From NCBI GenBank assembly GCA_002269645.1, contig NIVC01000176.1, forward strand, positions 1 through 64,000: a DNA stretch of 64,000 bases, read 5' to 3'. Positions 1 through 16,570 of the stretch are shown one piece after another. Source of the stretch: Macrostomum lignano (taxonomy: Eukaryota). The first letter of the stretch is position 1, and every line of letters begins with the position of its first letter. Position numbers and translations under genes: made by a program. Below the pieces are notes generated by a model, which was not told where the DNA came from, made no database searches, and worked only from the letters and a program-made list of their open reading frames with translations.

Positions 1-1
1 A

Positions 2-1152
2 ATTGATTGGACTGCTTACTATCATGACAAAAGCTATAGAGATGCTGAAAAGACGTCTTCAACTCCAGAGGAAGCCCTAGCAAAGAAGCATTATTGCTGA
101 TGAAAAAATGATAGCTGATTTAGATGCTATTCCAACCAGCGACTTGTCGGTAAAGGAGAGACTCATTAGAAATCTAGTAAAGCGTATTATCAATGCTAAA
201 GTTCGGTTTGGATTAGGAATTCATACTCACAACCCCAACAATTGTATAGACTGTCTAACAATTTATGGTAAGGGTCTTAGCTATGAAGATGCAGTAAAAT
301 TGCATAGGGAATACAGAAAGCCAAGAGTATTTAGAAAAATGATTCACTATGCAAAAGACACAATTTGGCATGCAGATATCATTATCCTACCGCCCGAAAG
401 AGGTTACAAATATGCTCTCACTATCATAGATGGTTTTACACGTTACGCCTGGGCAGTTCCTTTGAAAACAAAGACGGGAGCGGAAGTTGCAGAAGCTTTC
501 CAAAAAGTATTTAAGGAATCAGGAAGACGATCAGAGAGACTTTGTGTAGATGAAGGCAAGGAGTTTTATAATCAGCATATGTACAAGCTATACTCGTTTT
601 CAAAAGACAACATTAGAAAGAAGGATGAAAGGGGTGAATATATTAACAAGATGTTTCAATTTATGGCGAGTCAAGAATGCAATGATTGAGAGGTTCAATC
701 GTACTCTCACAAATAAACTCTGGTTTGAATTTGATCTACAGGGTAATCAGAAGTGGCTCCACACATTGCCAGCTATTGTTGAAAAATACAACAACACAAT
801 CCATTCTGAGATTCTGATAACTCCTTCAGAAGCATCTAAACATCCTGAGCGAGTACCAAAGCCAACTTTCGAGTATTCAAATGAGAAACCAAACTTCAAA
901 GTAGGTGACAAAGTTCATATCTATAGATATAAGGAGCACTTTGAAAAGGGTCGAAGAGGATATTGGAAAATTTCAGAAGTGTTTAGGATAAAGAAAATAG
1001 TTTACTCCAATCCCATAACCTACATTATTGAGGATGAGAATGGAGAAGAAATCATTGGATCATTTTACAAATCCCAGCTTCTACCAGCAAATTTTTCAAC
1101 TAAAAATGAGCGCCTATCGAACAAACTGCAAACGGGCGAAAGGTCAGATTGA
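2..1152 (+). CDS. PLA2-like domain in frame with retroviral-type (rve) integrase; 5'-partial, frameshifted near 91 and 650-675
   Basis: Frame from nt 2 reads IDWTAYYHDKSY (HDxxY PLA2 motif); after a 1-nt shift near 91 it continues ADEKM...NAKVRFGLG. Integrase triad follows: WHADII (D), CVDEGKEF (D), MIERFNRTL (E), then the Maverick-type tail PITYIIEDENGEEIIGSFYKSQL. Joins track ORFs 108..689 and 550..1152. Confidence 0.88.
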
Positions 1153-1528
1153 AACGTCTGATTCACAACTACTAGCTGATAAAGAGGGTGAAGGAATTGG
1201 TGATATGATCAGTGGTGTCACAAACTTTTTATCAAATCATGGAAGTAAAATTGTGAGTGGAGCTGATGCAATAGGTAAAACAGCTACCACAGCGAAGAAC
1301 ATATTCGATGCGAAGAAATCATACAGTGACATGTCTAAAGCAGGTGAGGAACTGGAATATATTAAAAAGAAACGTAGAGATAAAGAAGCAAAGAAAAGAA
1401 TGGAAGAAGAGCAACAGATAGCTTCTCAATCAAATAAGGCTATTCAAGATATTGTTAAAAAGGCTCTAGGAACAGCAGAACAGTCTCAAGTGTCTTTGAG
1501 ACAAGGCAATGGTTTGAAGAAATTCTGA
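1106..1528 (+). CDS. Small putative virion core/membrane-lytic protein (amphipathic helix after GEG site)
   Basis: ATG at 1106 in the TAAAAATG context shared by neighbouring genes. KEGEG is followed by IGDMISGVTNFLSNHGSKIV, a charged coiled coil and RQGNG. Confidence 0.7.
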   Translation: MSAYRTNCKRAKGQIETSDSQLLADKEGEGIGDMISGVTNFLSNHGSKIVSGADAIGKTATTAKNIFDAKKSYSDMSKAGEELEYIKKKRRDKEAKKRMEEEQQIASQSNKAIQDIVKKALGTAEQSQVSLRQGNGLKKF

Positions 1529-1536
1529 CCTTAAAA

Positions 1537-1965
1537 ATGAGCGAGAAAAACACTGAAGCAAGACTCAATCGATATGTTCGAGAGGGAAAACCAAGATATG
1601 TTACTGTAAATAAGCAAAAGCAATATCTTTCTAAAGAGAAGATTCGAGAATTGCAAGAGAAACAGAAAGAACATGAAGGTGGAATAATTCCTCTATTAGG
1701 CTTACTACCAGCAATATTGGGTGGTATCGGAGCAGCCTCCGGAGTTGGTACAATGATTGCAAAAAGTGTTAATACAGCCAACAATGCTAAGCATAATAAG
1801 ACAATAGAAAGCATTGAACGACAAAAACTAGAAGAGTTGAAAAAGGCTCAAGGGAGTGGAGTGTTAGTTGATGCGGCTAAAAGAGTCGAACAAGTACCCA
1901 GCGAAGCAGTCAAGTGGCTGCTAAAGACTTTAAAGTTGAAAAGGAGAAACAGGGTAATGGGATAA
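1537..1965 (+). CDS. Basic core protein precursor with adenovirus pX(mu)-like hydrophobic segment
   Basis: 142 aa, TAAAAATG start, basic N-terminus, then GGIIPLLGLLPAILGGIGAASGVG and AQGSG. Confidence 0.72.
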   Translation: MSEKNTEARLNRYVREGKPRYVTVNKQKQYLSKEKIRELQEKQKEHEGGIIPLLGLLPAILGGIGAASGVGTMIAKSVNTANNAKHNKTIESIERQKLEELKKAQGSGVLVDAAKRVEQVPSEAVKWLLKTLKLKRRNRVMG

Positions 1966-2008
1966 TTCTTAGACCTCACGAAGCTTAGTTGAAATTTCTC
2001 GTATAAAA

Positions 2009-3370
2009 ATGGAGAACAAAAAGGATATACTGAACCTATATGAGGACAAAACTTTTAGCTTTTTCAAAAAGAAAGAAGACTATATTAAGATTTCTCCAAC
2101 ACCAGTAGCACTAATAATCTCAATGTTGCAGGAGGTCAAATAGTTCATGAAGTCAATTCAACAGAGTCATACATTCTCATGTCAGAGGCATTCGGTTGTA
2201 TAAAATACTCAATAACACAACGAGATAACACCGACTTGAATACGAACATTACTCTAGAACATAATTGGCCTATGAGACTTTTCTCTCAACTCATAGTTGA
2301 CATTGGAGGAACAAAGAAAGTCTATAATGATCCTGGAGAGTATGACACAATCTTAAAGTCCGTAATGTACTCAAAATTGATGAATGAAGTTGGAGAAGCA
2401 TACGGATGGATTCCAGACACTGGAGATGCTGGGACTGTTTCTGATATAGCTCTAGCAAACAACGCAGATGCTGAAGCTGTGAGAACTGCAGCAATCGCTA
2501 TGAAAAATAGACTCAATAAGAAGGATTCGAATACTGGATACATTAGGAGGCTTGAAAATTATAACAATGTCACTAATGCTCCAAACAGAGGTGGAACAAT
2601 CAAACTATCATTAACACCCCTCATTGGGTTCCTTGATTGGCAGAAGATTAGCAAAGGAATTAAATATAAATTCACATGGACAAGAAAGACTAACGATGCT
2701 GAAATTTTCTTTGGAGCTGCCGGGACGGAAGCTAAGTTAACTATTAATAGCTTTGAGATTTGGATCCCTGCTATTACTTTGTCACCCAGTGCTGAAGCAG
2801 CTTTTCTAAAATCACTCAACAAGGACATTACAGTATCATTTCCAGAGAGGGTAACGGTTCCGCCACAACTCATTCAAGGAAGTCCATATACATGGAACAT
2901 AGCCAACATCTCCAATATGCCACTTGCAATCTTTGTAGCTTTCAAATATGACGTAAACAACCCATCATATATAGTTAATGATCACAAGTATGTGTCTTAC
3001 AAAACTGGAGCAAATGCAGTGAAAATAACCCAGCTTCAAGTCAGATTAAATCAGGTGATGTATCCGAATGATTATGTTGAAATTGATCCAGTAGCTCAAG
3101 ACATTCACAGAGCATATGAAATGTACGGACATCTGCAGCCGTTTCGGTGTAACTCCACCATTTAATAAACAAGACTTTCTAACCATCTATCCAATCTTTT
3201 GCTTTGATCTAACAGCTCAGGATGAGTTTCTTGTCAAGAGTGGAGTGAATATTCAATTATTTATCAAGAAGTCAACTAATGTTGAGCTGACTGCTTTTGC
3301 ACTAATTCTTGAACAAACAAAGAATGTAATAAAAGTTACCAGTGAATATCAAATGACCCGCGTCGAATAA
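2009..3370 (+). CDS. Major capsid protein (double jelly-roll, Polinton type); two frameshifts near 2105 and 3126
   Basis: Starts at TAAAAATG (2009, MENKKDILNLYED). One added G gives ISPTPGSTNNLNVAGGQ, joining ORF 2179..3165; a second shift joins 3116..3370 with the Polinton MCP C-terminal motif YPIFCFDL. Reconstructed length about 450 aa; lies next to the ATPase. Confidence 0.85.
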
Positions 3371-3391
3371 GGTCATTTTTTCTTTTTTTAA

Positions 3392-4165
3392 ATGCCCAAA
3401 GTAAAATTTCAGCATGATCCTATTTTCCCTAATCCTCTTTTATGTTGTATTATCGGCGCTACAAATACGGGTAAAACATATTTACTATTCCATATTCTTA
3501 CAAGTCCTGAAAAACTAGTTGACTTTAATGAGTTAGTTTTATATGTTCCCAGAGCATCTCAAATGGATCCAGAGTATCAGTTTCTAAAATATGGCTTTGA
3601 AAATGGTCTCCCACCTTCTCTTATCAACTCACTCTATCATGTCTACCAGGTGAGTGAGGATGCATCTCCTGAAGATATTAGACATATTTGTCGAGAGGCA
3701 GCCAACCCTGGTCGAGTGCAAAGCACATCAGAAAATTCAGAAGTAATAGAGAAAATTCCTGTCACTCTTTCCCATACTCCAAATGAAGAAATTTTTCATA
3801 ATGGACTAAAGACATGTGTGATATTGGACGATGTTTTGGGAGAGGCTAATCAAACATTTCAGGAAAGTCTGTTTCAGAGAGGCAGGCATGGAAACTGTTG
3901 TGGTTTTTATCTAGCTCAAAATTTTACCAAACTAGATCGCAATACTGTCAGGGAGAATACGACATGTTACATAATCTTTAAACAAAAAGATACAAACTTA
4001 AATCACATTGCTAGAAATATAGAAACGAATTATGAACCCGCTATATTCAAGGCTAAATGTAGAGAGGCTTGGAAAAAGAAGTATGGCTATATCTATATAA
4101 ATACAAGAGCTGATGAGGATGAGCAAGATTTGTATAAGGATGTTCTAACTAAAATCCCATTGTAA
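3392..4165 (+). CDS. A32-like genome packaging ATPase
   Basis: Walker A GATNTGKT, Walker B CVILDD, and RGRHGN...AQNF...RNTVREN typical of the FtsK/A32 family; intact 257 aa. Confidence 0.93.
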   Translation: MPKVKFQHDPIFPNPLLCCIIGATNTGKTYLLFHILTSPEKLVDFNELVLYVPRASQMDPEYQFLKYGFENGLPPSLINSLYHVYQVSEDASPEDIRHICREAANPGRVQSTSENSEVIEKIPVTLSHTPNEEIFHNGLKTCVILDDVLGEANQTFQESLFQRGRHGNCCGFYLAQNFTKLDRNTVRENTTCYIIFKQKDTNLNHIARNIETNYEPAIFKAKCREAWKKKYGYIYINTRADEDEQDLYKDVLTKIPL

Positions 4166-4167
4166 AA

Positions 4168-4899
4168 ATGACTAATGAATATATAAGAGAACTCATTAAT
4201 TTAGCAAAGCAGCGAGAAATGTACAAATCCAGAAATGATGCTCAACGCTATTTGAAAATTGGAGAAGAGAGTTTATATGCAAGAGTGGCTCCATTAGCTC
4301 AAAAACCTGTCACAGAAAAGCTCGATGAATTTATTGATGTCAATGCCAACCTTGTTGATAAACTTCAGAATCAAAAAGTTCCAGTTCCGCAATCAAGTAC
4401 ACCAAAAGGCCGATTTGAACCCCTAGAAGTATTTGACAAAATAATTGAAGAAATTGGAAAGATTCCAATAACTCAAAGACCAGCGCCTAGTATACGGATT
4501 CAAAAAACTGATGCTGGATATATATTTGGATCATCTGTAATAGATGTTGAATTCCATGAACAAGGTCGAGACATCATTGTCAACGAATTTCGAATGCCAT
4601 TTTCTGAAGATCTTGAAGAGTTGTTCAAAATGCCTAAAGTAACTGAAAATGGTGAAGAGCTGAAGCAATTCAAGATGCAAACATTGCAGGATTATGTTAA
4701 CATCATTGAACATTGTAAAAATCCAGCGGCCAAATCAAGTGGGAATTATAAGCAAGCAGTAAGGATATTGAAAGATAATCCACCAGGATATCGAGTAAAA
4801 CCGGGATCTGGACTCAGTGAAAGAGTGTTAACTTTATTAGCCGCCAAGGCAGAAGGACATAATAATGTTGATAAAGAGCTAGCAGAATTACTTGCTTAA
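4168..4899 (+). CDS. Conserved Polinton-type hypothetical (putative core) protein
   Basis: 243 aa, TAAAAATG start. N-terminal helix with QKPVTEKL; C-terminal GSGLSERVLTLLAAKAEGHN resembles the RLxLLxAxxxAGN helix I recall from Maverick ORFs. Confidence 0.65.
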   Translation: MTNEYIRELINLAKQREMYKSRNDAQRYLKIGEESLYARVAPLAQKPVTEKLDEFIDVNANLVDKLQNQKVPVPQSSTPKGRFEPLEVFDKIIEEIGKIPITQRPAPSIRIQKTDAGYIFGSSVIDVEFHEQGRDIIVNEFRMPFSEDLEELFKMPKVTENGEELKQFKMQTLQDYVNIIEHCKNPAAKSSGNYKQAVRILKDNPPGYRVKPGSGLSERVLTLLAAKAEGHNNVDKELAELLA

Positions 4900-4901
4900 A
4901 A

Positions 4902-5697
4902 ATGGAAAAAGAAATAGAAAAAGTCAACATCCTCTTGAGTAAAAAGTTTCAACGCACATTTGACTTCTTTTCAATTAAAAACCCATTTCGACAAACTCTA
5001 GGCACTCCTATAAATTTGTATGAAGATCGAGAATACGAAGCTGGTATAAAAAAGTTTGCAGTCTTTGATGCTATTAACAATATTGAAGGAGGCAATAATG
5101 AGTTGCGATACTCGAGGGATAGTGGTAGAACATGGAAAAAAATAAAGATTCAAGCGGGATCTTGGGAAGTTAAAAGTCTGTCAAGCGAGATTCAAAGATT
5201 GCTAACAGCTGCAAATGATTGGAAAGAGGGGGCTATTGTTTTCAGTGCAAGCCTAGACACGCGTAGAGTTGAGTTACGGTTAGCCACAGATTATCAAGTT
5301 GATTTCAGGGATGCACATTCCAATAACTTTAGAAGACTGTTGGGATTCAATTCGGAAGTGTATTTGAAACCATTTGAGAGAGCTCCAAATCCAGCTCGGA
5401 TAGACGGAGCTAGAAGTGCGATCATGGTTCGTTGTCTAAATATCAAAGGGGGTTTATCACTGATCCAGCTAATGGAAATCATTTAATTGATAAGCAAATA
5501 CTTCTTTCAATTCCATCGTTCTCTGTCCCAATGGGAAGTAAAATTATTCAAGAGCCGCAAATCCTGTGTACCTACCACTAACTACAAACATGTTGAGCAC
5601 ATTCGACTTTGTCATCGAAGATGAGTCTGGTGTTCTATACGACTTTGATGGCGAGGAAATATTTATAAATCTCACATACGACAAATATGAGTGTTAA
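4902..5697 (+). CDS. Minor capsid (penton, single jelly-roll) protein; frameshifts near 5452 and 5560
   Basis: ORF 4902..5486 (IKIQAGSWEV, RRLLGFN, AIMVRC). Two +1 corrections continue it as GGFITD...EPQNPVYLPL...IEDESGVLYDFDGEEIFINL to TAA at 5695-5697, matching the Polinton minor capsid C-terminus. Confidence 0.82.
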
Positions 5698-5699
5698 AA

Positions 5700-6131
5700 A
5701 TGAGCGAAGCTGAGACATGGAATGCATTTAAACAAAAGTTTGGGACTGACACTACGACTAATATTGATCTGATAAATTGGGCAAAATATCTCAAGTTAAA
5801 ACCATTTCGCTATGCCATGAGAGATGAAATTGTTGATTTACCACAGTATGGTTACTTTATGACAAATATTCACACTTCGAAAGAACGGGGTATACATCAT
5901 TCAGCTATATTTTCAGCTCCTGATAAGGTTTATTTTTTTGATTCCTATGCACTACCGCCCACACTGGAAATTATGGAAAAGTTTAATCACACAAAGAATA
6001 GAATATGTGGAGACATGGAAGAACAAATTCAAACTTTTGATAAGAAATATTGTGGTCAAATGTCGCTGTACTTTTTACACCGAATCGATAAAGGAGATAG
6101 CTATAACGAAATTTTGCAGCAATTAAAATGA
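5700..6131 (+). CDS. Adenain-like (Ulp1 fold) cysteine maturation protease
   Basis: Catalytic His (RGIHHSA), Asp (YFFDSYALPP) and Gln/Cys (QIQTFDKKYCGQMSLYFL) in the expected order. The ATG at 5700 (TAAAAATG) is preferred over the GTG at 5691. Confidence 0.92.
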   Translation: MSEAETWNAFKQKFGTDTTTNIDLINWAKYLKLKPFRYAMRDEIVDLPQYGYFMTNIHTSKERGIHHSAIFSAPDKVYFFDSYALPPTLEIMEKFNHTKNRICGDMEEQIQTFDKKYCGQMSLYFLHRIDKGDSYNEILQQLK

Positions 6132-7535
6132 GTTACAAGAATACTGCCAATCAATTTGGTTACTCGTCAAATTCAAATGATATAGCACCTGGAATAACAA
6201 TAGCGTTAGCTGATGATCGCTACATCAATGAAAATGAAGGATATAAGAGAGAGGAAATAGATAATTTATTGTTAGCAAAGAGAAATGTTTCAGACTCTTA
6301 TTCAAAGGAAGATAGTGACGCAATGAATATCACCATGCTACAATTAATTGACGATGCTCATGGGCGCGTAAACAATGTCTACACAAAAACCGAAACTGAC
6401 ACTAAGATGTATTCTAAAACTGAGATTGACACTAAGATGTATTCTAAAACTGAGATTGACACTAAGATGTATTCTAAAACTGAGATTGACACTTTGTTAG
6501 CAGAATGGCAAGGTACTGCGGGAGGTACAGAGAGTTCGAAATTAGTCAATATTCTTTCATTACTGACTTCAAACGCTTCCCATTCTGACATGAAAGTGAC
6601 CGCTTCTCATAACTCTTCAGCAGCATATCATGTTGCAGATTCAAACCCAGCTTCAGATTGGAGCAGTGCAGATGACTCAGACAAGTGGATACGATTTCAA
6701 TTTTTGAAAAGAGCTAGGAAAGTTGTAGAGATAAAGTTGGAAGGAGAGGTGTGGCCTGGTTGGTCTGTTAGTGTGAGCCTAAATGGAACAAACTGGACAC
6801 CTGTTGAACAAAGTGCACCCATTGAACTACGAAGGGCAATGCACATCTTAGGAAAAAAATACCCAATCCCTCATATTATTTCCATTATTTCTTAATTTTT
6901 CTGGTTCCGTAAAGCTTACAAAAGTTGAATTACTTGAGAGACAAACAGTGGTTAATGATTTAGTGTGGCCTATAGATAGACTTCAAGCTGTACCAAAGCT
7001 ATACGTAGACAATGCACTTGAATCAGTGGAGCTGCGACTAAGGCGGGGACTAGGTTTCAAATCTTATACAGGATATATTCCCTCACTAGCAACACGTCAA
7101 AACTATAGAGAAAGGGGTTTCAATGTAGCGTCATCAGGAGCATTTGAAACGTCAGATAATTGGGGTTATATAGTATCTAATTCAGAATGGGCATCGAGGA
7201 ATGAACCCAATTCTTACATTGAAGTACAACTTCCCGAGTCTATTCAAATTTGGAAATTCGGATTGAAAGGAACCAAAGCAGTAGGTAGTGAAATTATAAA
7301 AAATCAACCAAAAAGTTTTATTCTGAAAGGGAGCAATAACAAGAGAGACTTTAGGAATATTTTTTCTACCGAAAACGCTGGTTTAGTTCCTGGAGTCATG
7401 AAATATTTTGAAGTAGCTTCCACCGAAAAATTCTCTGTTTATAGAGTGCATATTAATTCAGCCACTGAAGGATCAACCGTTCTTATTGTTTCAGGCTTTC
7501 AACTTTATCCGATTTTAGACATAATCGCCACATAA
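6128..7535 (+). CDS. Putative fibre/receptor-binding protein with YSKTEID repeats and two discoidin (F5/8 type C)-like domains; frameshifted at 6825-6895
   Basis: Contains 10-aa repeats MYSKTEIDTK, discoidin-like motifs (SDWSS...WIRFQF...WSVSVSLNGTNWT; EWAS...YIEVQLPE...PKSFILKGSNN...FSVYRVHI) and a KLYVD fibre motif. Two +1 corrections join ORFs 6128..6895 and 6948..7535. Confidence 0.72.
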
Positions 7536-7537
7536 AA

Positions 7538-8278
7538 ATGAATGAAAAAAATGAACACATCTATCCTGTGGTTGAGCTGCATGAAGCAGATTTGAGGGAG
7601 CGGGACTATTTCAATCAGAGAAAGGGTGAAATCAAAGGCAGTATTGAATGCATTACTAAAGATCTTACAATTTATAGCAAAAAGGTAAAAAAGTACAAAC
7701 GGCAAAGTAGCAGGATAAATTGGATCAACATTGTGACAGGAAATGTAAGTCTCTTGGCTGCTACAGGAATTGGCATAGCAACATCGATACTGACATTGAA
7801 TCCCTTAGTTATTGGAGTAGTAATCGGGGCAATGAGTGGTTTTGAAGCTGTAAAATCCACGTCGTTGTTTGCAACTGTGAAAATTCATTGCCAAAAGCAG
7901 AAGGCAAAATACATTGTTCTCAGAGATCTGGCAAATCAATATAGAGAGAGATTGTATATTTACTCCCAAAAAGCAGTTGATGATTATAGATTAACTCTTG
8001 AAGAGGTTCAAGCAGCTGCTGCAATTTATTCAGAATACAGAGAAAAAAGAGATCAATTGTTAGACGCCTGTGTTGCGCCTGAAGAAGTTAACCATTCGGA
8101 AGTCGTTGATAAAATCCTCAAAGAGAGTAGACTTGGTCATTCAGCGAAGGAAAAAATTAAAAAGGAATTACTAGAAAAAGATCTGAGAGAAAAATTGGGT
8201 CTAGCTGATAAGCCAAAAGAGTACTCGGCAACACTCAATCTTCAATCAAATGCTCCAAGTGCACCTCCCTACAATTAA
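7538..8278 (+). CDS. Viral protein with hydrophobic helical hairpin and C-terminal PSAP motif
   Basis: 246 aa, TAAAAATG start; about 50-aa hydrophobic Gly/Ala-rich stretch between coiled coils; ends APSAPPYN. Confidence 0.75.
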   Translation: MNEKNEHIYPVVELHEADLRERDYFNQRKGEIKGSIECITKDLTIYSKKVKKYKRQSSRINWINIVTGNVSLLAATGIGIATSILTLNPLVIGVVIGAMSGFEAVKSTSLFATVKIHCQKQKAKYIVLRDLANQYRERLYIYSQKAVDDYRLTLEEVQAAAAIYSEYREKRDQLLDACVAPEEVNHSEVVDKILKESRLGHSAKEKIKKELLEKDLREKLGLADKPKEYSATLNLQSNAPSAPPYN

Positions 8279-8303
8279 TATTGTATAATTTTTTTTCTAG
8301 AAA

Positions 8304-8609
8304 ATGGCTGCAATAAAAGTTCTCCTAAATGCATACCAAGATGAAATAAAGCGCATTGATAGAGAAATACAAATAAATAACTTTAGGGAGGTGCGTACAC
8401 ATTGTGGAATAATAGAACCGGATTATGGATATATTGATAAATTAAGTGATCGCAAATGTTTTCTTGAAACTGCTATTGTTTTTGCAGAAGCATTTATTGA
8501 AGATGAAATCGACAAGTTAGTTAAAAAAATAAAAGAGATCAGGAAGTATGTTGAGTTTAATGATCAGCGCAAGAAACTTCTTAAGCAATTGAATTGTTTG
8601 GTTTTTTAA
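8304..8609 (+). CDS. Small helical hypothetical viral protein
   Basis: 101-aa ORF with AAAATG start, converging tail-to-tail with PolB (2-nt gap). Confidence 0.55.
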   Translation: MAAIKVLLNAYQDEIKRIDREIQINNFREVRTHCGIIEPDYGYIDKLSDRKCFLETAIVFAEAFIEDEIDKLVKKIKEIRKYVEFNDQRKKLLKQLNCLVF

Positions 8610-8611
8610 AC

Positions 8612-11600
8612 TTATTTGAATCCATGAGGATGTGTTATAATTCCATTGGATTCAATGTATCTTTTGTCATCGAAAGGACTAATAGCCTTCTTATTTTGTT
8701 CTATTAAAGTCATGTTATGCTTGTCTGATCTAAGGCTATACACTTTCCTATAGACTGGTTCGTTATAATCAAGTAGTATATTTCTATAGTCATCATATTG
8801 TACATGATGCTTCACTGTTGACTTTGAGATTCCCTTTAATTTTTTCTCTTCCTTCCCTTCCTTTTGAGTGCTGACATAAACTGTTTTAAATGAATATGCT
8901 TTCGATCTTAGAGCGGTTACTTCTGTCATTATGCAATCATATTTTGCCAATTCATCCTTGAATGTTCCCAGCTTTCCACAATTATTCATATCATGTAAAT
9001 CAATCGGAAAATTTTTAGTATACAGCGACAAATCGAAATGCTCCTTCATCTGAGCAATGTCTTTATAAATATTTTCTGTCTTTATATGAAGAATGAATGA
9101 GTCGGTGTCAGAGGTAACAATCTCAACATTATCCCCCCATTTGGACTTGAAAACTTTGTAAAATGTTTCATACATATGCAATTTCGAGAGATCCAGAATT
9201 GCTTGTCCAGCGTATGTTGGCTTTGTTCCAAGAGGGATATTCTTAGGTCGCTGGTGAATGCAAATTAGATTTTCATTGAAGATTTTGAAGTCTATGAAAT
9301 CTGGCTTGGATATTATCTTAGATATCTCATCCTCACTTGTCAGCAACTCAAATCGCTTTCTCTTTTTAACATCCTCCATTGTCTTGCCAAAGATGCTTAC
9401 ATTAAGCATTTTGAACTGATTGTCTTCGAACTCAATTTTTGCTTCTTTTGCCTTCTTTCTTTCTATCGTATTAAACTCGATATACTCCTTTAACCATGGC
9501 TTTTCATTGAATGAAATCGTCCTATGTACTTTTGTCACTTTCAAGCCCATCTCTTCATAGAATCGCAATAGCTTATGATGTACGATATATTTTGTTTTAT
9601 TTTTTAAATTAAGGATCAATTTAGGAACTTTTCCAATCTTTTTCATTTCGACTTCTAGACATCCTTTCTGATATTCACTCAATTCACTTTCTGACACAGT
9701 TGTACTTTCAGGTGCTAATGGGAAGGCATACGTTTTCTTTTTTGATTCTTTTGTATATTCAAGATCACATTCAACAAGACAGCCCCGTCCTTCAGGAGGA
9801 TTTTTATAATAGTTGGAATCAGCTTCCCATTTAAAGTCAGAAAAAGGAAGGGGTTCCAACATACTATAACCATAGAGATTTGTACAATCAACGTAAAGTA
9901 AGTAGGAAGTTGGTTTTTCTAAATCATAGCCTGGAAGATAAGGATTATTTGCCTTTACATATCGTGACCCTAGAACTCCGCTAAATCCACCTCTTATTCC
10001 ACTATCAATCATATGAATCATATCGATATCCGCCAGCAAGTCTAACTCAACTTTACTTTTCTTCAACCCAGCATTCCAACTCAATCCTGGTGCTGAGAAG
10101 CATCTGGCTGGATCAATCTCAAAGTGTTTCAGGAAGAATGTTCTATAGCGTTCGAATACATCTGCTAATAATAGAACGTCAACCTTAAGATACAGCATCA
10201 TATAATCCTCCAAATTCTTACAATTAAAAGTTTTCCACATTTGTTTTGCAAAATCATATTCATCTGAAGAAATGTCTTCACCTTTCAACCTCGAGTAAAA
10301 CTCTTTCAATGGTGGTAACTCAGTTTCTGCTAATCTTCCAAAGCTTCTGATATACTCATATGGGAATACACCCTTGCGCTTAACATATTGAAAATCGCTG
10401 TCGTTTTTAAAGTATTTCTTTGTTATGATGAAGTCTTCATCCTTCAGGGACTTTGCGCAGATATCCAGCGAGGAAGCCAAGAACCTGTATGAATCTAGGA
10501 ACCTCAGTACTACTTTGTTACATCCAAACTCGAGAGAAATGTACTCTTCAGAAGTTTTAGATAGTGGAGGAAATAATTTATCCTCCATGGTCTCTTTGCT
10601 CTTTAAGTGTGTCACTAAGAAGTGAAAGTCATAGTGGGATCCATTCTGGAAGTAGATTGGGATTACTCGCTTCTTACTCTCGAGAGCATTGCAGGATTTA
10701 CAGGCAGCCCCTCTATATTTGCCACTATAGTGACAATGTTCTCTTACCTTACCTAGCTTAAGTGTAAAGTCATTTTTACAATTCGCACATTTTTCAGCCC
10801 TGTAAAACTCTTTCCATTGTTGCTTTGTGATCTTATATTTACTTATATTATTGCTCTTGTTCAGACATTTTTTGCACCAAGATTCTATAGTAACTTTACT
10901 GTCAATTTCCTTCACATGCACCTTCATATCTGGAACCATATCAAACTCCTCGCATATGTAGCATTGTTTAGCCTTACAGTAAGAAGCCTCCTCTTGCGCT
11001 GTCAAATTATGATTAATATGCTTAGGCTCCTTCAGACCATTCTTAATTTGTTGATAAATTTCAACCATTCTATCAACATATTTTTCCTTGGCATCTGTGC
11101 CACAATATCCTTCATACTTCGATTTAATTACCTCGGGTAACTCAGAATGGATATAAAAACCGTAAGCTATTGCGTTCTGATTTGCTACTTTTAGAGTATA
11201 TGACTCTTTGTCTAAAATCTTAGTGAAGCTTTTACTTTGTGCTTCAATGGGTTCAGTTGTTGCTTCAAAGTCAGCATAGATAGCGATGGGTAGCTTTAGT
11301 TTGAATATATGATTCTTAAATTTCAGCTTCGATTCTTCCTTAGGTAATTTATAAAGACCGGGTGCATTTTTACCGCACAACCTTGAGTGCTCGGCCAACA
11401 CGTTTTCACTTGTGTAAACAGTCATGCATGTTCTGCATAAAAATGACTTGTGATTTACACGCTTTCCAGTTTGTTTTGAAACTAATGTTGTAAGATTTTT
11501 TATCAGACAATAATGAGTCTTACCATCTTCCTCCAGGTATAGTAAATCTACTACATAAGTTCGTTGATTATGAGGTGAGACATAGAGATGTTGTAGTGTA

Positions 11601-12436
11601 TCTGGGAATTTACCTTCATAATACAGCACATTAACAGCAAACTCTTCATTTAGTCTTTCAAACTTTTTTATATCTTTTATTCTCATGGGGAATTGGATAT
11701 CGGTGAGATTAAGTTCTTTTTCATATGGTTTATATTTTGACACTCGATAACCATCTTTATTTTGTGGATGTTTAACAGCTAATACACACCAGAGGAAGCA
11801 TTTCTCATCATCATTCTGAATGTTAAGAATTGATCGACATTTTTTAATTTCATTGTTAGTAAAGAAGGATCCTCCCTGAATGCTAGAAACCTTGGCAACT
11901 CTGATGTAGATAGATTTTATCTGCACAAAGACATTATCTGATCCCTTCTCACAGAACTCATCAATGAACTTTTCCAATGTCTCCTGTCTTTCGCTAAGGG
12001 CAGTGTCATACTGTGAATCTGACTGAATATTGTAGAATCCACTTTCATTGTCATAGACTGTGAATGGAGGAATGTCTTCGTTAAAATTCTTTTTGAATTC
12101 TAGTTCAAAATGCAAGTTGAACTTACTCCGTCCACCATCTCTAACTTTCTCTAACACTGCTTTAATTGCATCTTCATACTGAATAAAAACCTTTGTTATA
12201 TAACCTTCATTAACATTCCTAATGACATACTCTGAAATTTCTGACTTCTTATTATACTTCTCTCTAAAGGATTTATGTAGTATTATTTCATCACCAATCT
12301 GCGGAGCTGCCACTTCATCTTCTTTGGACTCCGCTATAGGCTCATTATCTGTGTGCTTTTGCTGCTGACGCCGAAACCGCTCAGCTTGAATGTATTGTTC
12401 AAATTCTTCATCACTCATCTTTCTGAGTTGTTCCAT
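8612..12436 (-). CDS. pPolB: Protein-primed family B DNA polymerase with N-terminal terminal-protein/vOTU region
   Basis: Intact 1274 aa. ExoI IYADFE, ExoII FQNGSHYDFHFL, ExoIII YLKVDVLLLADVF; polymerase motifs YVDCTNLYG, KMLNVSIFGK, TSDTDSF; endonuclease VII-like Zn insert (EHCHYSGKYRGAACKSCN). Confidence 0.97.
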   Translation of the reverse strand: MEQLRKMSDEEFEQYIQAERFRRQQQKHTDNEPIAESKEDEVAAPQIGDEIILHKSFREKYNKKSEISEYVIRNVNEGYITKVFIQYEDAIKAVLEKVRDGGRSKFNLHFELEFKKNFNEDIPPFTVYDNESGFYNIQSDSQYDTALSERQETLEKFIDEFCEKGSDNVFVQIKSIYIRVAKVSSIQGGSFFTNNEIKKCRSILNIQNDDEKCFLWCVLAVKHPQNKDGYRVSKYKPYEKELNLTDIQFPMRIKDIKKFERLNEEFAVNVLYYEGKFPDTLQHLYVSPHNQRTYVVDLLYLEEDGKTHYCLIKNLTTLVSKQTGKRVNHKSFLCRTCMTVYTSENVLAEHSRLCGKNAPGLYKLPKEESKLKFKNHIFKLKLPIAIYADFEATTEPIEAQSKSFTKILDKESYTLKVANQNAIAYGFYIHSELPEVIKSKYEGYCGTDAKEKYVDRMVEIYQQIKNGLKEPKHINHNLTAQEEASYCKAKQCYICEEFDMVPDMKVHVKEIDSKVTIESWCKKCLNKSNNISKYKITKQQWKEFYRAEKCANCKNDFTLKLGKVREHCHYSGKYRGAACKSCNALESKKRVIPIYFQNGSHYDFHFLVTHLKSKETMEDKLFPPLSKTSEEYISLEFGCNKVVLRFLDSYRFLASSLDICAKSLKDEDFIITKKYFKNDSDFQYVKRKGVFPYEYIRSFGRLAETELPPLKEFYSRLKGEDISSDEYDFAKQMWKTFNCKNLEDYMMLYLKVDVLLLADVFERYRTFFLKHFEIDPARCFSAPGLSWNAGLKKSKVELDLLADIDMIHMIDSGIRGGFSGVLGSRYVKANNPYLPGYDLEKPTSYLLYVDCTNLYGYSMLEPLPFSDFKWEADSNYYKNPPEGRGCLVECDLEYTKESKKKTYAFPLAPESTTVSESELSEYQKGCLEVEMKKIGKVPKLILNLKNKTKYIVHHKLLRFYEEMGLKVTKVHRTISFNEKPWLKEYIEFNTIERKKAKEAKIEFEDNQFKMLNVSIFGKTMEDVKKRKRFELLTSEDEISKIISKPDFIDFKIFNENLICIHQRPKNIPLGTKPTYAGQAILDLSKLHMYETFYKVFKSKWGDNVEIVTSDTDSFILHIKTENIYKDIAQMKEHFDLSLYTKNFPIDLHDMNNCGKLGTFKDELAKYDCIMTEVTALRSKAYSFKTVYVSTQKEGKEEKKLKGISKSTVKHHVQYDDYRNILLDYNEPVYRKVYSLRSDKHNMTLIEQNKKAISPFDDKRYIESNGIITHPHGFK

Positions 12437-12545
12437 TTTTTATAAAATAAATTTAGCAGGAAAATTATGTAATGACGTTATAAATTTATTGTGGCATCCA
12501 CAGGATTAAGCAATTAGAAATGTATAAGCGATATTACAATAGGCA

Positions 12546-12771
12546 GAAAAAGAACCAGATACTGCAGTATTCGATGTGAAAAAGCAACGAGCAAAAAAGA
12601 ACCAGATACTGCAGTATTCGATGTGAAAAAGCAACGAGCAAAAAAGAACCAGATACTGCAGTATTCGATGTGAAAAAGCAACGAGCAAAAAAGAACCAGA
12701 TACTGCAGTATTCGATGTGAAAAAGCAACGAGCAAAAAAGAACCAGATACTGCAGTATTCGATGTGAAAAA
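12546..12771. repeat. Five near-perfect 47-bp tandem repeats, each with a 12-bp palindrome ATACTGCAGTAT
   Basis: Palindromes start at 12559, 12606, 12653, 12700 and 12747; the array lies just upstream of the PolB start. Confidence 0.95.
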
Positions 12772-12832
12772 GAATAGTCAGCATAATGAGAGTCAGATGT
12801 TATGATTCACAACGCGCGCAATAAGATTTTCA

Positions 12833-13468
12833 TCAGATCAGAAGTGCATCTTCCTCCTCTTCCTCCAGCATCTCCAGGGCTTTCTCAGCGTACTTGATTA
12901 TAGAACGTAGGCGAAACAGTGAGATGCCACAACGCCACAGAATTGGATGTGCTGTGCTTAGACGAGCCACTCGGACTAAATAGTTCCCCCACGCGGACTT
13001 AAAGCGTAGTCTAGACAAAAATACTTTATACTCCTCGTCACTCAATGAAAGCTTCATTCTTATTAATATCTGACCAGACTTAATTCCATACTGCAAGCCC
13101 CGGCACTGTAGCTCGTTTATCATTTTATCAATGGAATTAAGTTCTGTAATTGCATCCTGAAATTGATACTCTCCGTCCATAAATTCATTAATCTCTCCCG
13201 GCTCTTGATGCTCCATCGAATCCCGCAGTATTTTAGCAGCTTCTGCTATTCGTTCCTTTGTCTTGTCCACTCTCTCCAATCTACCTCGAAAAGTTGGAAT
13301 AGCAAACTTCTTCCTATTAAATTTTCTAGCAACCTTGTTATATTCTCCTATCCATTTCTTACAATGCTTTAAATCCCCACTACAAAAAATCTCCTTGATA
13401 AGACTATCGAGGTCGGATTCGAATGATGCCATTGCTGCCTCCATACGGGATTCTAAAATGTAGGGCAT
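12833..13468 (-). CDS. Viral hypothetical protein, possible DUF3102-like helical DNA-binding domain
   Basis: 211 aa with viral base composition; segment GQILIRMKLSLSDEEYKVFLSRLRFKSAWGNYLVRVARL; acidic tail. Confidence 0.6.
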   Translation of the reverse strand: MPYILESRMEAAMASFESDLDSLIKEIFCSGDLKHCKKWIGEYNKVARKFNRKKFAIPTFRGRLERVDKTKERIAEAAKILRDSMEHQEPGEINEFMDGEYQFQDAITELNSIDKMINELQCRGLQYGIKSGQILIRMKLSLSDEEYKVFLSRLRFKSAWGNYLVRVARLSTAHPILWRCGISLFRLRSIIKYAEKALEMLEEEEEDALLI

Positions 13469-14181
13469 TATAACTATTTAGTATCAAAATCAACACAAGA
13501 ACAAAACTCTTATTTCTTACCTTTTCGTTGTTGCTGAGTTGTGTGATTTATATGTTCACTCTGTTTGCTTTAGTCTGTCTGATAAACGTGTGTTGTATTG
13601 CTTCCAAAACTAAAGCGGGTTTTTATCAAGCCACCTAAGCGACTTCTTACATGCGCACTGAGTCATGAAAATAGAAAAAAAACCAGCATGGCCGCTGCTT
13701 TAGAGTTATGGTTTATGAGGTGCTCAATTCCTGCTGCAGCATGCTGATATTCGAAACCTATTGATAAAGGAACAATAAATTCATGTTGACTCAACTGCTA
13801 AACTGTTAGGGTTAGGTAAGTTGCTTTGCTTCATTCTTGATGCGAAAAGCTAGAAAGAATGTTGAGTCATTCTGCTTTAAAGAAAAAAGGAACATAGTTT
13901 CTTTCAGTGTGCATTGTGCAGTGCGATGCCATGCATCTCAAGTAACTACAATTCTGACTCATGTGGATAGAATTTTTTCTGCATCTGGCATGAGCCTGCA
14001 AAGTTGCATTCCATTCACCCGGTGTCGCTTTCTCATTGGTTGTCATCAATGAGACACCAATGAGAATTGAGGTTATGCGCTGCTTTTGTATTTTCACATA
14101 ATATTAATACAGGAATGAATTTGGAAAGATGGCTGATAATTCTCTCCAAATTCATTGCAACAATAAAAAGCTTTAATAGAC

Positions 14182-14745
14182 ATGCCATCCCAAAAGGAAC
14201 TTCGCAAGAGATATAGGGATCATCGAAAGGAATTCGAACTCACAAAGCAAAAGATTCGAAGGCTCATGCCATTAACTATATTTGCAGATCTAGGTTCTGA
14301 GAGACTAATCAATAAGCTACAAGGTTTAGATACATTCAAGTCCTTTACGGAGGAGGATAAGCTCCTGAAGCTTCTGAAGGAAAATGTGGCAAAAAGAAAA
14401 AGCATGCAAGCTATTGCACTATCCTATCAAAACCAAGCTCAAGCCATGCAAGCGATTGGTGATTTGGATACTGAAGATGATAGCCTTCCACCACCCTATG
14501 AGATCGCTGCTGACAACCGAGGCACTGCTGACATCCAAGGCACTGCTGACATCCAAGGCGCTGCTGACAACCGAGGCACTGCTGACATCCAAGGCGCTGC
14601 TGACAACCGAGGCACTGCTGACATCCAAGGCACTGCTGACAACCGAGGCACTGCTGACATCCAAGGCACTGCTGACAACCGAGGCACTGCTGACATCCAA
14701 GGCACTGCTGACAACCGAGGCACTGCTGCTTCATCAGCTAACTAA
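14182..14745 (+). CDS. Viral hypothetical protein with PPPY motif and 6-aa repeat tail
   Basis: 187 aa; coiled-coil N-terminus, LPPPYE, then about 12 in-frame 18-bp units encoding AD(NR/IQ)G(T/A) at 14506-14725. Confidence 0.62.
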   Translation: MPSQKELRKRYRDHRKEFELTKQKIRRLMPLTIFADLGSERLINKLQGLDTFKSFTEEDKLLKLLKENVAKRKSMQAIALSYQNQAQAMQAIGDLDTEDDSLPPPYEIAADNRGTADIQGTADIQGAADNRGTADIQGAADNRGTADIQGTADNRGTADIQGTADNRGTADIQGTADNRGTAASSAN

Positions 14746-15060
14746 AACTAGATGATTGATGACTTGTGGCGATCATGGACTAATTTGTCAATATTAATAA
14801 ATTGCTCTAATGTTTTAATTTTGTTCTTCATAGGCGTTTGAGGACTTTTTGTTACTGTTTTAATAATCACTACTTTAATATTTAAAATACAAAACCATTA
14901 TTATTATTTGCATAAGTTATGCGAAGTGTATCCTAAAAACGGATTTTAAGGAGCTGTTATCTTTTTTAATTTTTTATAATTAATTTTCATTATAGCAATT
15001 TTGATTTACGTGAATTAGATTTAACTTTGTGTAATGGAAGCTGTCCTTGACCAATTTTTA

Positions 15061-15829
15061 GAGTTCCTGCGAGAGCCTATTTGACCATACGCTTCACTCA
15101 GTGTGGGTTTCGCACGACGTTAAAGCTGAGTCACAATATAAAAATTGCTTTGAGGAGAATTTCTCCTGCTATTTGTTCCATTTTTAAGATACATAATTTA
15201 GAAAAGGGTTAGTGAAATCGTCCGTAGGTAGGGTCGCGAGAGCATTGTTCGTTTGTAACTTGCGTGGCCCACTTCATGTCTTTTTTTACAGCTAGATAGA
15301 GGGTGAACACAAAAGATTTGCACGAGCCACTCCTATTGGATGCCAAAACCAAACACTTTTTGGCAGAAATTTTGGCAAAAATTTTGGTTTTGGCAGAAAT
15401 TTTGGCAGCCAATAGAAATGTTCAGTGCTGCGGTTATGTATAGTTAGTTTGGTGAGTTCCTGCGAGAGCCTATTTGACCATACGCTTCACTCAGTGTGGG
15501 TTTCGCACGACGTTAAAGCTGAGTCACAATATAAAAATTGCTTTGAGGAGAATTTCTCCTGCTATTTGTTCCATTTTTAAGATACATAATTTAGAAAAGG
15601 GTTAGTGAAATCGTCCGTAGGTAGGGTCGCGAGAGCATTGTTCGTTTGTAACTTGCGTGGCCCACTTCATGTCTTTTTTTACAGCTAGATAGAGGGTGAA
15701 CACAAAAGATTTGCACGAGCCACTCCTATTGGATGCCAAAACCAAACACTTTTTGGCAGAAATTTTGGCAAAAATTTTGGTTTTGGCAGAAATTTTGGCA
15801 GCCAATAGAAATGTTGAGTGCTGCGGTTA
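15061..15829. repeat. Two near-identical direct repeats of about 376 bp (period 393 bp)
   Basis: Copies at 15061-15436 and 15454-15829; the identical spurious ORFs 15209..15412 and 15602..15805 confirm the 393-bp offset. Confidence 0.93.
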
Positions 15830-16348
15830 GTGCTCTAGTAGTCGAGTATGCATGCCACGAAAAATTTAAATTAGCGCTCCATGTTCTTGAATGTCTTCTA
15901 TTATCTTTAAGTACAAATCTAGAACAGCATTAAAGCCATTTCAAAGCCTCGGGACAAAGCGAATGTGCAGGAGCAAATTATTGACTTTTGTAAAAGCATT
16001 GTATGCCTCGAGTGGACAATTTTTATGCATAGATGGTAGCTGACTGATCGTTAAAAGCAAAGCTAGTAAGATTGGCTTATTGAAGGGCGTTATGCAATGG
16101 GAGAAAAGACTATTATTAAATTTGATGCTAGTTTTGAAATGATGAAACCTGAAAATAGGTTATTTTAACCCACGAATCAAAAATTTCTTGTGGTTTTACT
16201 CACGAAATCGCGCAAAAAGCAATTTTTCGAAACTTTTGAAAAATCACTAAAATCACTGTTTTCAGACAATTTTCACCTGTTTTTAGTCGATTTTTATCTG
16301 TTTTTTGTGATTTTTCAAAATGGGTTGCGCTCAAACCTACTTTTCCTA

Positions 16349-16570
16349 TACTACTTCCCACAAATATCCCAAAATGCCATTGAAATCCCACAAATATCCC
16401 AAAATCCCATTAAAATCCCACAAATATCCCAAAATGCCATTGAAATCCCACAAATATCCCAAAATCCCATTAAAATCCCACAAATATCCCAAAATGCCAT
16501 TGAAATCCCACAAATATCCCAAAATGCCATTGAAATCCCGCAAATATCCCAAATTGCCATTGAAATCCTA
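16349..16570. repeat. 30-bp intronic minisatellite
   Basis: About 7 copies of cacaaatatcccaaaatgccattgaaatcc. Confidence 0.9.

Follow-up and report, generated by a model that had tools for sequence, protein, structure and literature searches.

The pX-like gene of a Macrostomum lignano Polinton probably encodes a protease-processed protein that shares its hydrophobic segment with adenovirus pX

The open reading frame (ORF) at positions 1537 to 1965 on the forward strand of the window, the 64,000-nucleotide stretch of Macrostomum lignano DNA analysed here, encodes a Polinton protein whose family very probably shares common ancestry with adenovirus pX. The match covers about residues 46–78 of pX and is confined to the segment after a Gly-Gly motif, and the family is, as far as its sequences tell, one without an Arg-rich mu peptide. 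The window's protein belongs to a Polinton pX-like class and not to the adenovirus pX that is defined by mu and the adenain consensus. We put at about even odds (a probability of roughly 0.5) the reading that it is a protease-matured internal virion protein with a hydrophobic helix that would act in entry; conservation is read directly from the sequences, and virion location, cleavage and membrane activity are inferred. The features used below are listed by position, with their evidence in brackets; published work is cited from excerpts of the papers named.

1 to 16355: Polinton/Maverick element, truncated on the left by the start of the contig (integrase, major capsid protein (MCP), ATPase, protease, terminal inverted repeat)
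108 to 1152: integrase (Pfam rve, E 1.5e-10)
1106 to 1528 (+): upstream neighbour, 140 aa from the ATG at 1106, frame open from 1034 (motifs, helix)
1181 to 1195 (+): predicted K-E-G-E|G site of the neighbour, followed by an amphipathic helix (hydrophobic moment about 0.4)
1499 to 1525 (+): conserved C-terminal R-Q-G-N|G-L-K-K-F of the neighbour (alignment)
1537 to 1965 (+): stand-alone pX-like ORF of 142 aa here (16 of the 20 genome copies compared encode 150 aa)
1537 to 1671 (+): N-terminal domain, aa 1–45, predicted helix / beta-hairpin / helix, mildly basic (AF2, charge)
1672 to 1683 (+): H46-E47-G48-G49, putative maturation site of GG|X type, with the expected cut between 1683 and 1684 (conservation, clan CE specificity)
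1684 to 1770 (+): hydrophobic Gly/Ala-rich segment, aa 50–78, family-level homologue of the pX C-terminal conserved region, PF05829 (hhalign 90–96%, PDB, hydropathy)
1783 to 1854 (+): predicted polar helix, aa 83–106, after the hydrophobic segment (AF2, low confidence, pLDDT 50–68)
1846 to 1860 (+): A-Q-G-S|G, predicted second site of GX|G type (K-x-G-x|G in most close homologues)
1928 to 1965 (+): frame break, one-base indel in the homopolymer run near 1928–1932 (copy comparison, short-read contigs)
2006 to 3370 (+): double-jelly-roll MCP gene, split over frames in the window (PF21738, E 2.3e-10 on 2179–3165)
3392 to 4165: A32-type ATPase (Pfam Pox_A32, E 6.9e-6)
5700 to 6131 (+): adenain/ASFV-S273R-like cysteine protease (alignment: H66, D81, Q111, C118)
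8612 to 12436 (-): pPolB-like ORF (polymerase motifs by inspection)
about 15293 to 16355: terminal inverted repeat (comparison with copies L028 and L029)

The pX-like gene shares its element with MCP, ATPase, protease and integrase genes and terminal inverted repeats, which identifies the host element as a Polinton, and it sits immediately upstream of the MCP gene, which in copy L028 is a 454-aa ORF. A genome search with the window's protein gave at least 150 scored matches among 590 candidates, so the gene is present in many copies. Two proteins, 100% and 99% identical to the window's, carry the source label Macrostomum lignano. Among the 20 copies fetched, the window's is one of four that encode 142 aa. 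About the last ten codons of the window copy lie out of frame behind the indel, which leaves the motif region unaffected; owing to the break, a C-terminal GX|G motif of other copies goes unread. Since the break near 1928–1932 is absent from short-read contigs in all four runs compared with the window, it is probably an assembly error. Frame breaks also interrupt the integrase and MCP genes (653, 671, 1928, 2104 and 3127 for the three genes together), several of them absent from the short-read contigs, and this Polinton is probably less decayed than the assembly suggests. Within codons 1–130, five differences recurred among the 20 genome copies, all of them synonymous.

The remainder of the element was annotated in the same survey. 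The ORF at 8612–12436 (-) is presumed to be pPolB-like from polymerase motifs that we recognized by inspection; Pfam gave no polymerase match on it, and an endonuclease VII-like domain lies at aa 532–589 (PF02945, E 9.9e-8). A fibre-like ORF at 6128–6895 (+), at least 340 aa long in copy L028, combines a 10-aa tandem repeat with an F5/8 type C carbohydrate-binding domain (PF00754, E 2.3e-6), and the ORF at 7538–8278 (+) has two hydrophobic stretches and a weak SLATT_1 match (E 0.027, below cut-off). Two unannotated accessory ORFs, 12506–13468 (-) and 14182–14745 (+), resemble by eye ORFs of other Polinton families of the same genome, and one of the two bears a tandem repeat. In copy L029 (3084–4442, +; window 1–1152), a parvovirus-type PLA2-like domain, recognized by motif inspection, is joined to the integrase in a single ORF of 452 aa, with a G-L|G motif where the two meet; the product is possibly a precursor that the protease separates. 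Several Polinton families, deeply divergent and differing in gene order, occur in the genome (L022–L030, L041–L051), and one of them has an ORF that looks dUTPase-like by inspection (L044:1573–2103).

The earlier note had placed a HEGG motif directly before IIPLLGLLPAILGGIGAASGVG, and the ORF at 1537–1965 (+) indeed reads ...KQKEHEGG-IIPLLGLLPAILGGIGAASGVG... exactly. Together with the eleven close homologues that we collected, residues G48, G49, P52, L53, L57, P58 and I60 were invariant in 12 of 12 sequences. A profile search of 1.84 billion representative sequences found 263 proteins at E<=0.001, of which the best 150 were used. GG-hydrophobic-hydrophobic-P was present in 144 of 157 homologues (once in 137, twice in six, four times in one), a count that is partly circular because sequences with the motif had gone into the search profile. 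Further, very divergent Polinton families of the genome were found, each likewise with a GG-[FIL]-L-P ORF in its capsid module. The GG|I(I/L)P motif, whose conservation in related elements the earlier note had made its own test, is thus kept both among the homologues and within the genome. At P4 of the site, Lys occurred in 103 and His in 29 of 153 homologous sites (132 for the two together), the window having His. The GG-hydrophobic module is tandemly repeated in seven of the 157 homologues; ORFs with two to four copies include L041:4488–5459 (-), P0027, P0030 and P0057, and this arrangement suggests a polyprotein of repeated peptides.

The element's own protease is the candidate enzyme. In alignment it keeps His66, Asp81, Gln111 and Cys118, and a six-sequence profile matched ASFV S273R (E 3.2e-9) and the adenovirus protease (E 6.5e-4), while a search of PDB with the window's protease sequence alone found no protease. 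Adenain is described as cutting (M/I/L)XGG|X and (M/I/L)XGX|G (PMC4246237), and the protease of mavirus, a virus of the same wider lineage, as cutting GG|X and GX|G (Born et al., PMC6048507); the mavirus sites lie in the MCP C-terminus and MV13, whereas the MCP of this Polinton has no such site. The tails of 128 homologues contained 270 GX|G-hydrophobic motifs against 24 in shuffles, and K/R/H stood at P4 of 37% of the tail G-x-G-hydrophobic motifs against a background of 19%, both counts being taken over related, not independent, sequences. Counted over the genome's Polinton families, sites of the GG|X and GX|G types together numbered 19 against 5.0 expected in seven pX-like proteins and 15 against 4.1 in five neighbours, and pPolB was also above expectation (6 against 2.4). 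The numbers were near expectation in the MCP (12 against 9.4), mCP (1 against 1.9), ATPase (0 against 1.0), integrase (1 against 2.4) and protease (2 against 3.7), and PLA2 had 5 against 3.0. The pX-like protein therefore has what we looked for in a clan CE protease substrate, namely conserved GG|X or GX|G sites above chance.

In one of the 157 sequences, P0092 (434 aa), an adenain-like protease that is 37% identical to the window's is fused N-terminally to the pX-like protein; the fusion could be a read-through or a gene-calling error. Judged from the conserved motifs, the site enrichment, the retained protease residues and this fusion, the maturation cut that the earlier note had proposed is likely, with the pX-like protein as a probable substrate of the element's adenain-like protease. 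The adenain consensus (M/I/L)XGG|X itself is absent, with M/I/L at P4 in 0 of 153 homologous sites, and the P4 residues point instead to a protease that would prefer Lys or His. In the literature searched, which left subscription papers mostly outside its scope, we found no paper that defines the sites of a Polinton protease.

The gene upstream of the pX-like gene shows sites of the same kind. Of 11 aligned rows, 10 retain its GX|GLKKF end, among them a family of only 32% identity (L041:5473–5850, -). The name pVI-like, which the earlier note gave to this neighbour, applies at most to its layout: an N-terminal site is followed by an amphipathic helix, and a C-terminal GX|G precedes a basic tail that ends in an aromatic residue, an order that recalls adenovirus pVI and its pVIc peptide. 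Profile similarity to pVI did not bear the name out (hhalign 0.5%, with shallow alignments of 11 and 14 sequences), and the tail, unlike pVIc, is 5 aa long and has no counterpart of pVIc's conserved Cys. The neighbour may correspond to the published 'Cupiennin' class, judged by its description.

For the pX-like protein, the relationship that the earlier note had proposed was borne out at the level of the family. The alignment of 82 moderate-length homologues matched 12 adenovirus pX sequences with an hhalign probability of 95.9% (E 5e-9, 27 columns), and that of the 12 close homologues did so with 90.1%. The adenovirus sequences came from a motif scan of IMG/VR that gave 22 loci, 14 with a pX ORF by pattern, 12 of which were non-identical and were aligned; the loci were recognized as adenoviral by the pVI genes downstream, one of which ends with pVIc as it is known from the literature. 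Among 177,635 PDB sequences, 9lr9_E ('PX') was the top match for both profiles (E 0.4 and E 0.0037). PF05829 (Adeno_PX; Pfam cut-off 25 bits) matched 23 of the 37 relatives scanned at E<=0.01 and five of them at or above the cut-off, the 37 being 32 of 146 new matches (top-ranked or long) and five from the genome. A search of the genome with PF05829 gave matches of up to 33.7 bits among 150 scored of 335 candidates, partly at places (C2415, C2787) that the window's protein also matches with E about 1e-7; the window's own locus was not among these 150. The profile search that the earlier note had called for thus succeeded for the family and failed for the single protein, which alone gave no PF05829 match in Pfam and scored 2.6 bits against the adenovirus pX profile, a score that 25 of 1000 local shuffles reached. 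A neighbouring Atlas cluster that carries PF05829 on 20% of its members is a lead only, and none of the 108 matches in a pattern search of IMG/VR with the window's pX-like family was confirmed.

Adenovirus pX, or pre-mu (PF05829; 9lr9_E), and the Polinton protein have in common the Gly-Gly, a hydrophobic-L/I-P stretch and about 30 aa of hydrophobic sequence rich in Gly and Ala, as well as a gene beside the major capsid gene and a clan CE protease in the genome. They differ in that the Polinton protein has neither an Arg-rich mu peptide nor a second site bracketing mu, and in that its P4 residue is His or Lys, whereas adenoviruses have Met, Ile or Leu. Only the Polinton protein has a predicted folded N-terminal domain, in the place that the Arg-rich mu region occupies in pX, the predicted polar helix at aa 83–106 and 60–70 extra C-terminal residues with GX|G motifs. 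The N-terminal domain was predicted by AF2 with pLDDT 83–94 for aa 1–40 (68 for the whole model, pTM 0.43). Searches with the model gave nothing at E<=0.001 in BFVD and a best Z of 5.3 in VIA (Nup192, rmsd 4.1 over 61 residues), which is within noise; these fold searches bear neither on the novelty of the N-terminal fold nor on its absence. An Atlas search with aa 1–49 gave no usable match. Pfam matched the window's protein with DUF61 alone (E 0.02, below cut-off), and DUF61 recurred on the N-terminal domain in five of the 12 close homologues.

Could the resemblance to pX, or the function that its name implies, be misleading? Any hydrophobic helix rich in Gly and Ala that lies behind a Gly-Gly protease site might mimic pX without common ancestry, and the match is indeed short and biased (25–34 low-complexity columns), with a weak score for the window's own sequence. 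Spurious matches to other Gly/Ala helices also occurred: ATP synthase c matched three of the 12 close homologues (best E 2.6e-5), as many as PF05829, and a pneumovirus fusion peptide plus heptad (8e15_G) gave a likeness that is not significant (E 0.041). We nevertheless consider convergence very improbable. The real hhalign score of 48.6 stood far above the maxima of 22.8 in 100 column shuffles and 29.9 in 100 shuffles that kept GG, and above the 16.0 obtained on reversal, and the probability was still 94% without GG and 87% without GG-x-LP. Furthermore, 33 of 158 forward sequences reached 10 bits with the adenovirus pX profile as against 0 of 158 reversed ones, pX ranked first in PDB, related Polinton proteins passed the Pfam cut-off, and adomavirus LO6 is described as bearing the same segment (10.1101/341131). 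A DNA-condensing core precursor, in which the N-terminal part would do the job of mu, is improbable as well. In adenoviruses, two cuts in pX release a basic middle piece of 19 aa that condenses DNA (PMC7998265). The Polinton protein has a pI of 10.1 and a net charge of +5 over aa 1–49 (8 Lys and 5 Arg against 8 Glu, Arg 10%), and chromatin condensation has been suggested for homologues in Polinton-like viruses (PLVs; PMC11296320). The basic N-terminus of the earlier note is therefore real over these 49 residues; the 19 residues before the site, however, have a net charge of 0, and the most basic 19-residue stretch of the protein (+5) does not exceed the best stretches of the other 14 ORFs of the element (+4 to +8). 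The preceding 19-mer is at +4 to +11 in 14 adenovirus pX proteins and at +7 or more in 13 of them, the exception, L056, being at only +4; in 149 homologous sites the mean is +0.9 and the maximum +5, so that 0 of 149 reach +7. The N-region of 135 homologues has a median net charge of +4 (range -6 to +11) and 4% Arg, the mu/N-terminal part of pX had an hhalign probability of 0.05% against the homologue profile, and the N-terminal part is predicted to be folded, unlike a protamine-like peptide. Because aa 1–45 contain neither GG nor GxG, the two-site, three-fragment layout of pX is lacking, too. The terms 'DNA-condensing' and 'mu-like' are thus not supported for this protein. In a distant Polinton lineage of the genome (L042, L043, L045, L047, L051) the N-terminal 100 aa have a net charge of +15 to +18 and P4 is Gln, and on this charge DNA binding may hold there.

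With condensation and convergence set aside as improbable, the question is what the hydrophobic segment might do. In our preferred reading, the pX-like protein would be packaged inside the particle, where the element's adenain-like protease would cut it after His-Glu-Gly-Gly (G49|I50) and again at GX|G sites further downstream. The cut would expose an uncharged hydrophobic Gly/Ala-rich helix, and the freed helix would help the particle to break through a host membrane during entry, in concert with the amphipathic helix of the neighbour and with the PLA2-like domain. The membrane role is proposed because of the Kyte-Doolittle hydropathy (1.94 for the 19-mer at aa 50–68), the tandem modules, and two published findings, namely that the pX-like domain occurs fused to PLA2 and to gasdermin-like domains and that melittin resembles pX in HHpred (PMC8502044); the ascription of the adenovirus lytic role to pVI, not pX (10.1101/341131), counts against it. 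The main alternative, which we regard as possible but unlikely, is that the segment is a structural anchor on the inner capsid or on other core proteins, bridging shell and genome, and that the cut loosens the core. Such an anchor would agree with the fact that pX is among the chains deposited in a solved entry (9lr9_E), which we presume to be linked to the bovine adenovirus 3 work of Xiao et al. 2025, according to whose title the minor and core proteins are reportedly 'bridging capsid and genomic core'. The place of the gene next to the MCP gene points the same way, as does the low hydrophobic moment (0.16–0.2 over aa 50–73), which is unlike that of a lytic amphipathic helix. A predicted complex of aa 1–110 and two copies of the MCP, run without alignments, scored 0.00 and speaks neither for nor against an anchor. 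The published fusions to PLA2 and gasdermin-like domains suggest membranes rather than an anchor (PMC8502044), and the uncharged segment would become a new N-terminus, which would be the layout of cleavage-activated entry peptides.

The link to pX is already published (PMC8502044, PMC11296320). Starrett et al. (PMC8502044, section 3.2) described pX-like domains in PLA2X and GasderminX of adintoviruses and Polintons, and pVI and pX have been named canonical 'Macc' proteins of adintoviruses (PMC11071296). These are likewise Polinton-encoded pX-like domains in proposed membrane-active virion core proteins, as far as the excerpts describe them, and the excerpts contain no analysis of cleavage sites. 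In the present protein, by contrast, the pX-like segment lies near the N-terminus of a stand-alone 150-aa protein, and the PLA2-like domain, by motif inspection, is in the integrase ORF (L029:3084–4442); no PLA2 match was found in the window's ORF or in the long homologues scanned, and hence no fusion of PLA2 to the pX-like domain. An 'L2 mu core-like' protein was reported in four PLVs by Barth et al. (PMC11296320). It is pX-like by HHpred in viruses that also encode an adenovirus-type protease, but chromatin condensation was suggested there and is opposed by the charge data here, a comparison made from the published description. Adomavirus LO6, with an HHpred probability of 95% to a 37-aa hydrophobic pX segment (Welch et al., 10.1101/341131), shares this segment with our family and adjoins capsid and adenain genes. 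It differs in belonging to a family of viruses with circular genomes and in being proposed as a pVI and pX fusion, whereas the Polinton family has no pVI similarity (hhalign 0.6% for the 82-homologue profile). The excerpts of PMC10748475, PMC8097293, PMC12635127 and PMC12517501 held nothing further on a pX-like Polinton gene, and the family could already be listed under its authors' name among the supplementary sequences of PMC8502044. Our additions are that the link is restricted to the segment behind the predicted cut and that mu is missing, together with a predicted specificity for a basic P4 residue and the fusion to the protease.

A wider scheme, which we hold only tentatively and think rather doubtful as a whole, is that the hydrophobic C-terminal segment is the ancestral part of pX, which Polintons would have kept as a portable cleavage-activated entry module and to which adenoviruses would have added mu. 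In the same scheme Polintons would run a full adenovirus-like maturation with a specificity of their own ((K/H)-x-G-G|X and x-G-x|G), the GLKKF tail of the neighbour serving as a protease cofactor, a minimal counterpart of pVIc. Sightings of Polinton particles are rare, and the literature searched names no substrates for the protease that Polintons conserve; the family supplies candidate substrates, along with a predicted specificity that is open to testing with peptides. Where a Polinton protein is annotated as 'mu core-like', the name should not be taken to mean DNA condensation. According to the comparison, what adenoviruses and Polintons have in common may be not mu but the C-terminal third of adenovirus pX, which is conserved and functionally obscure.
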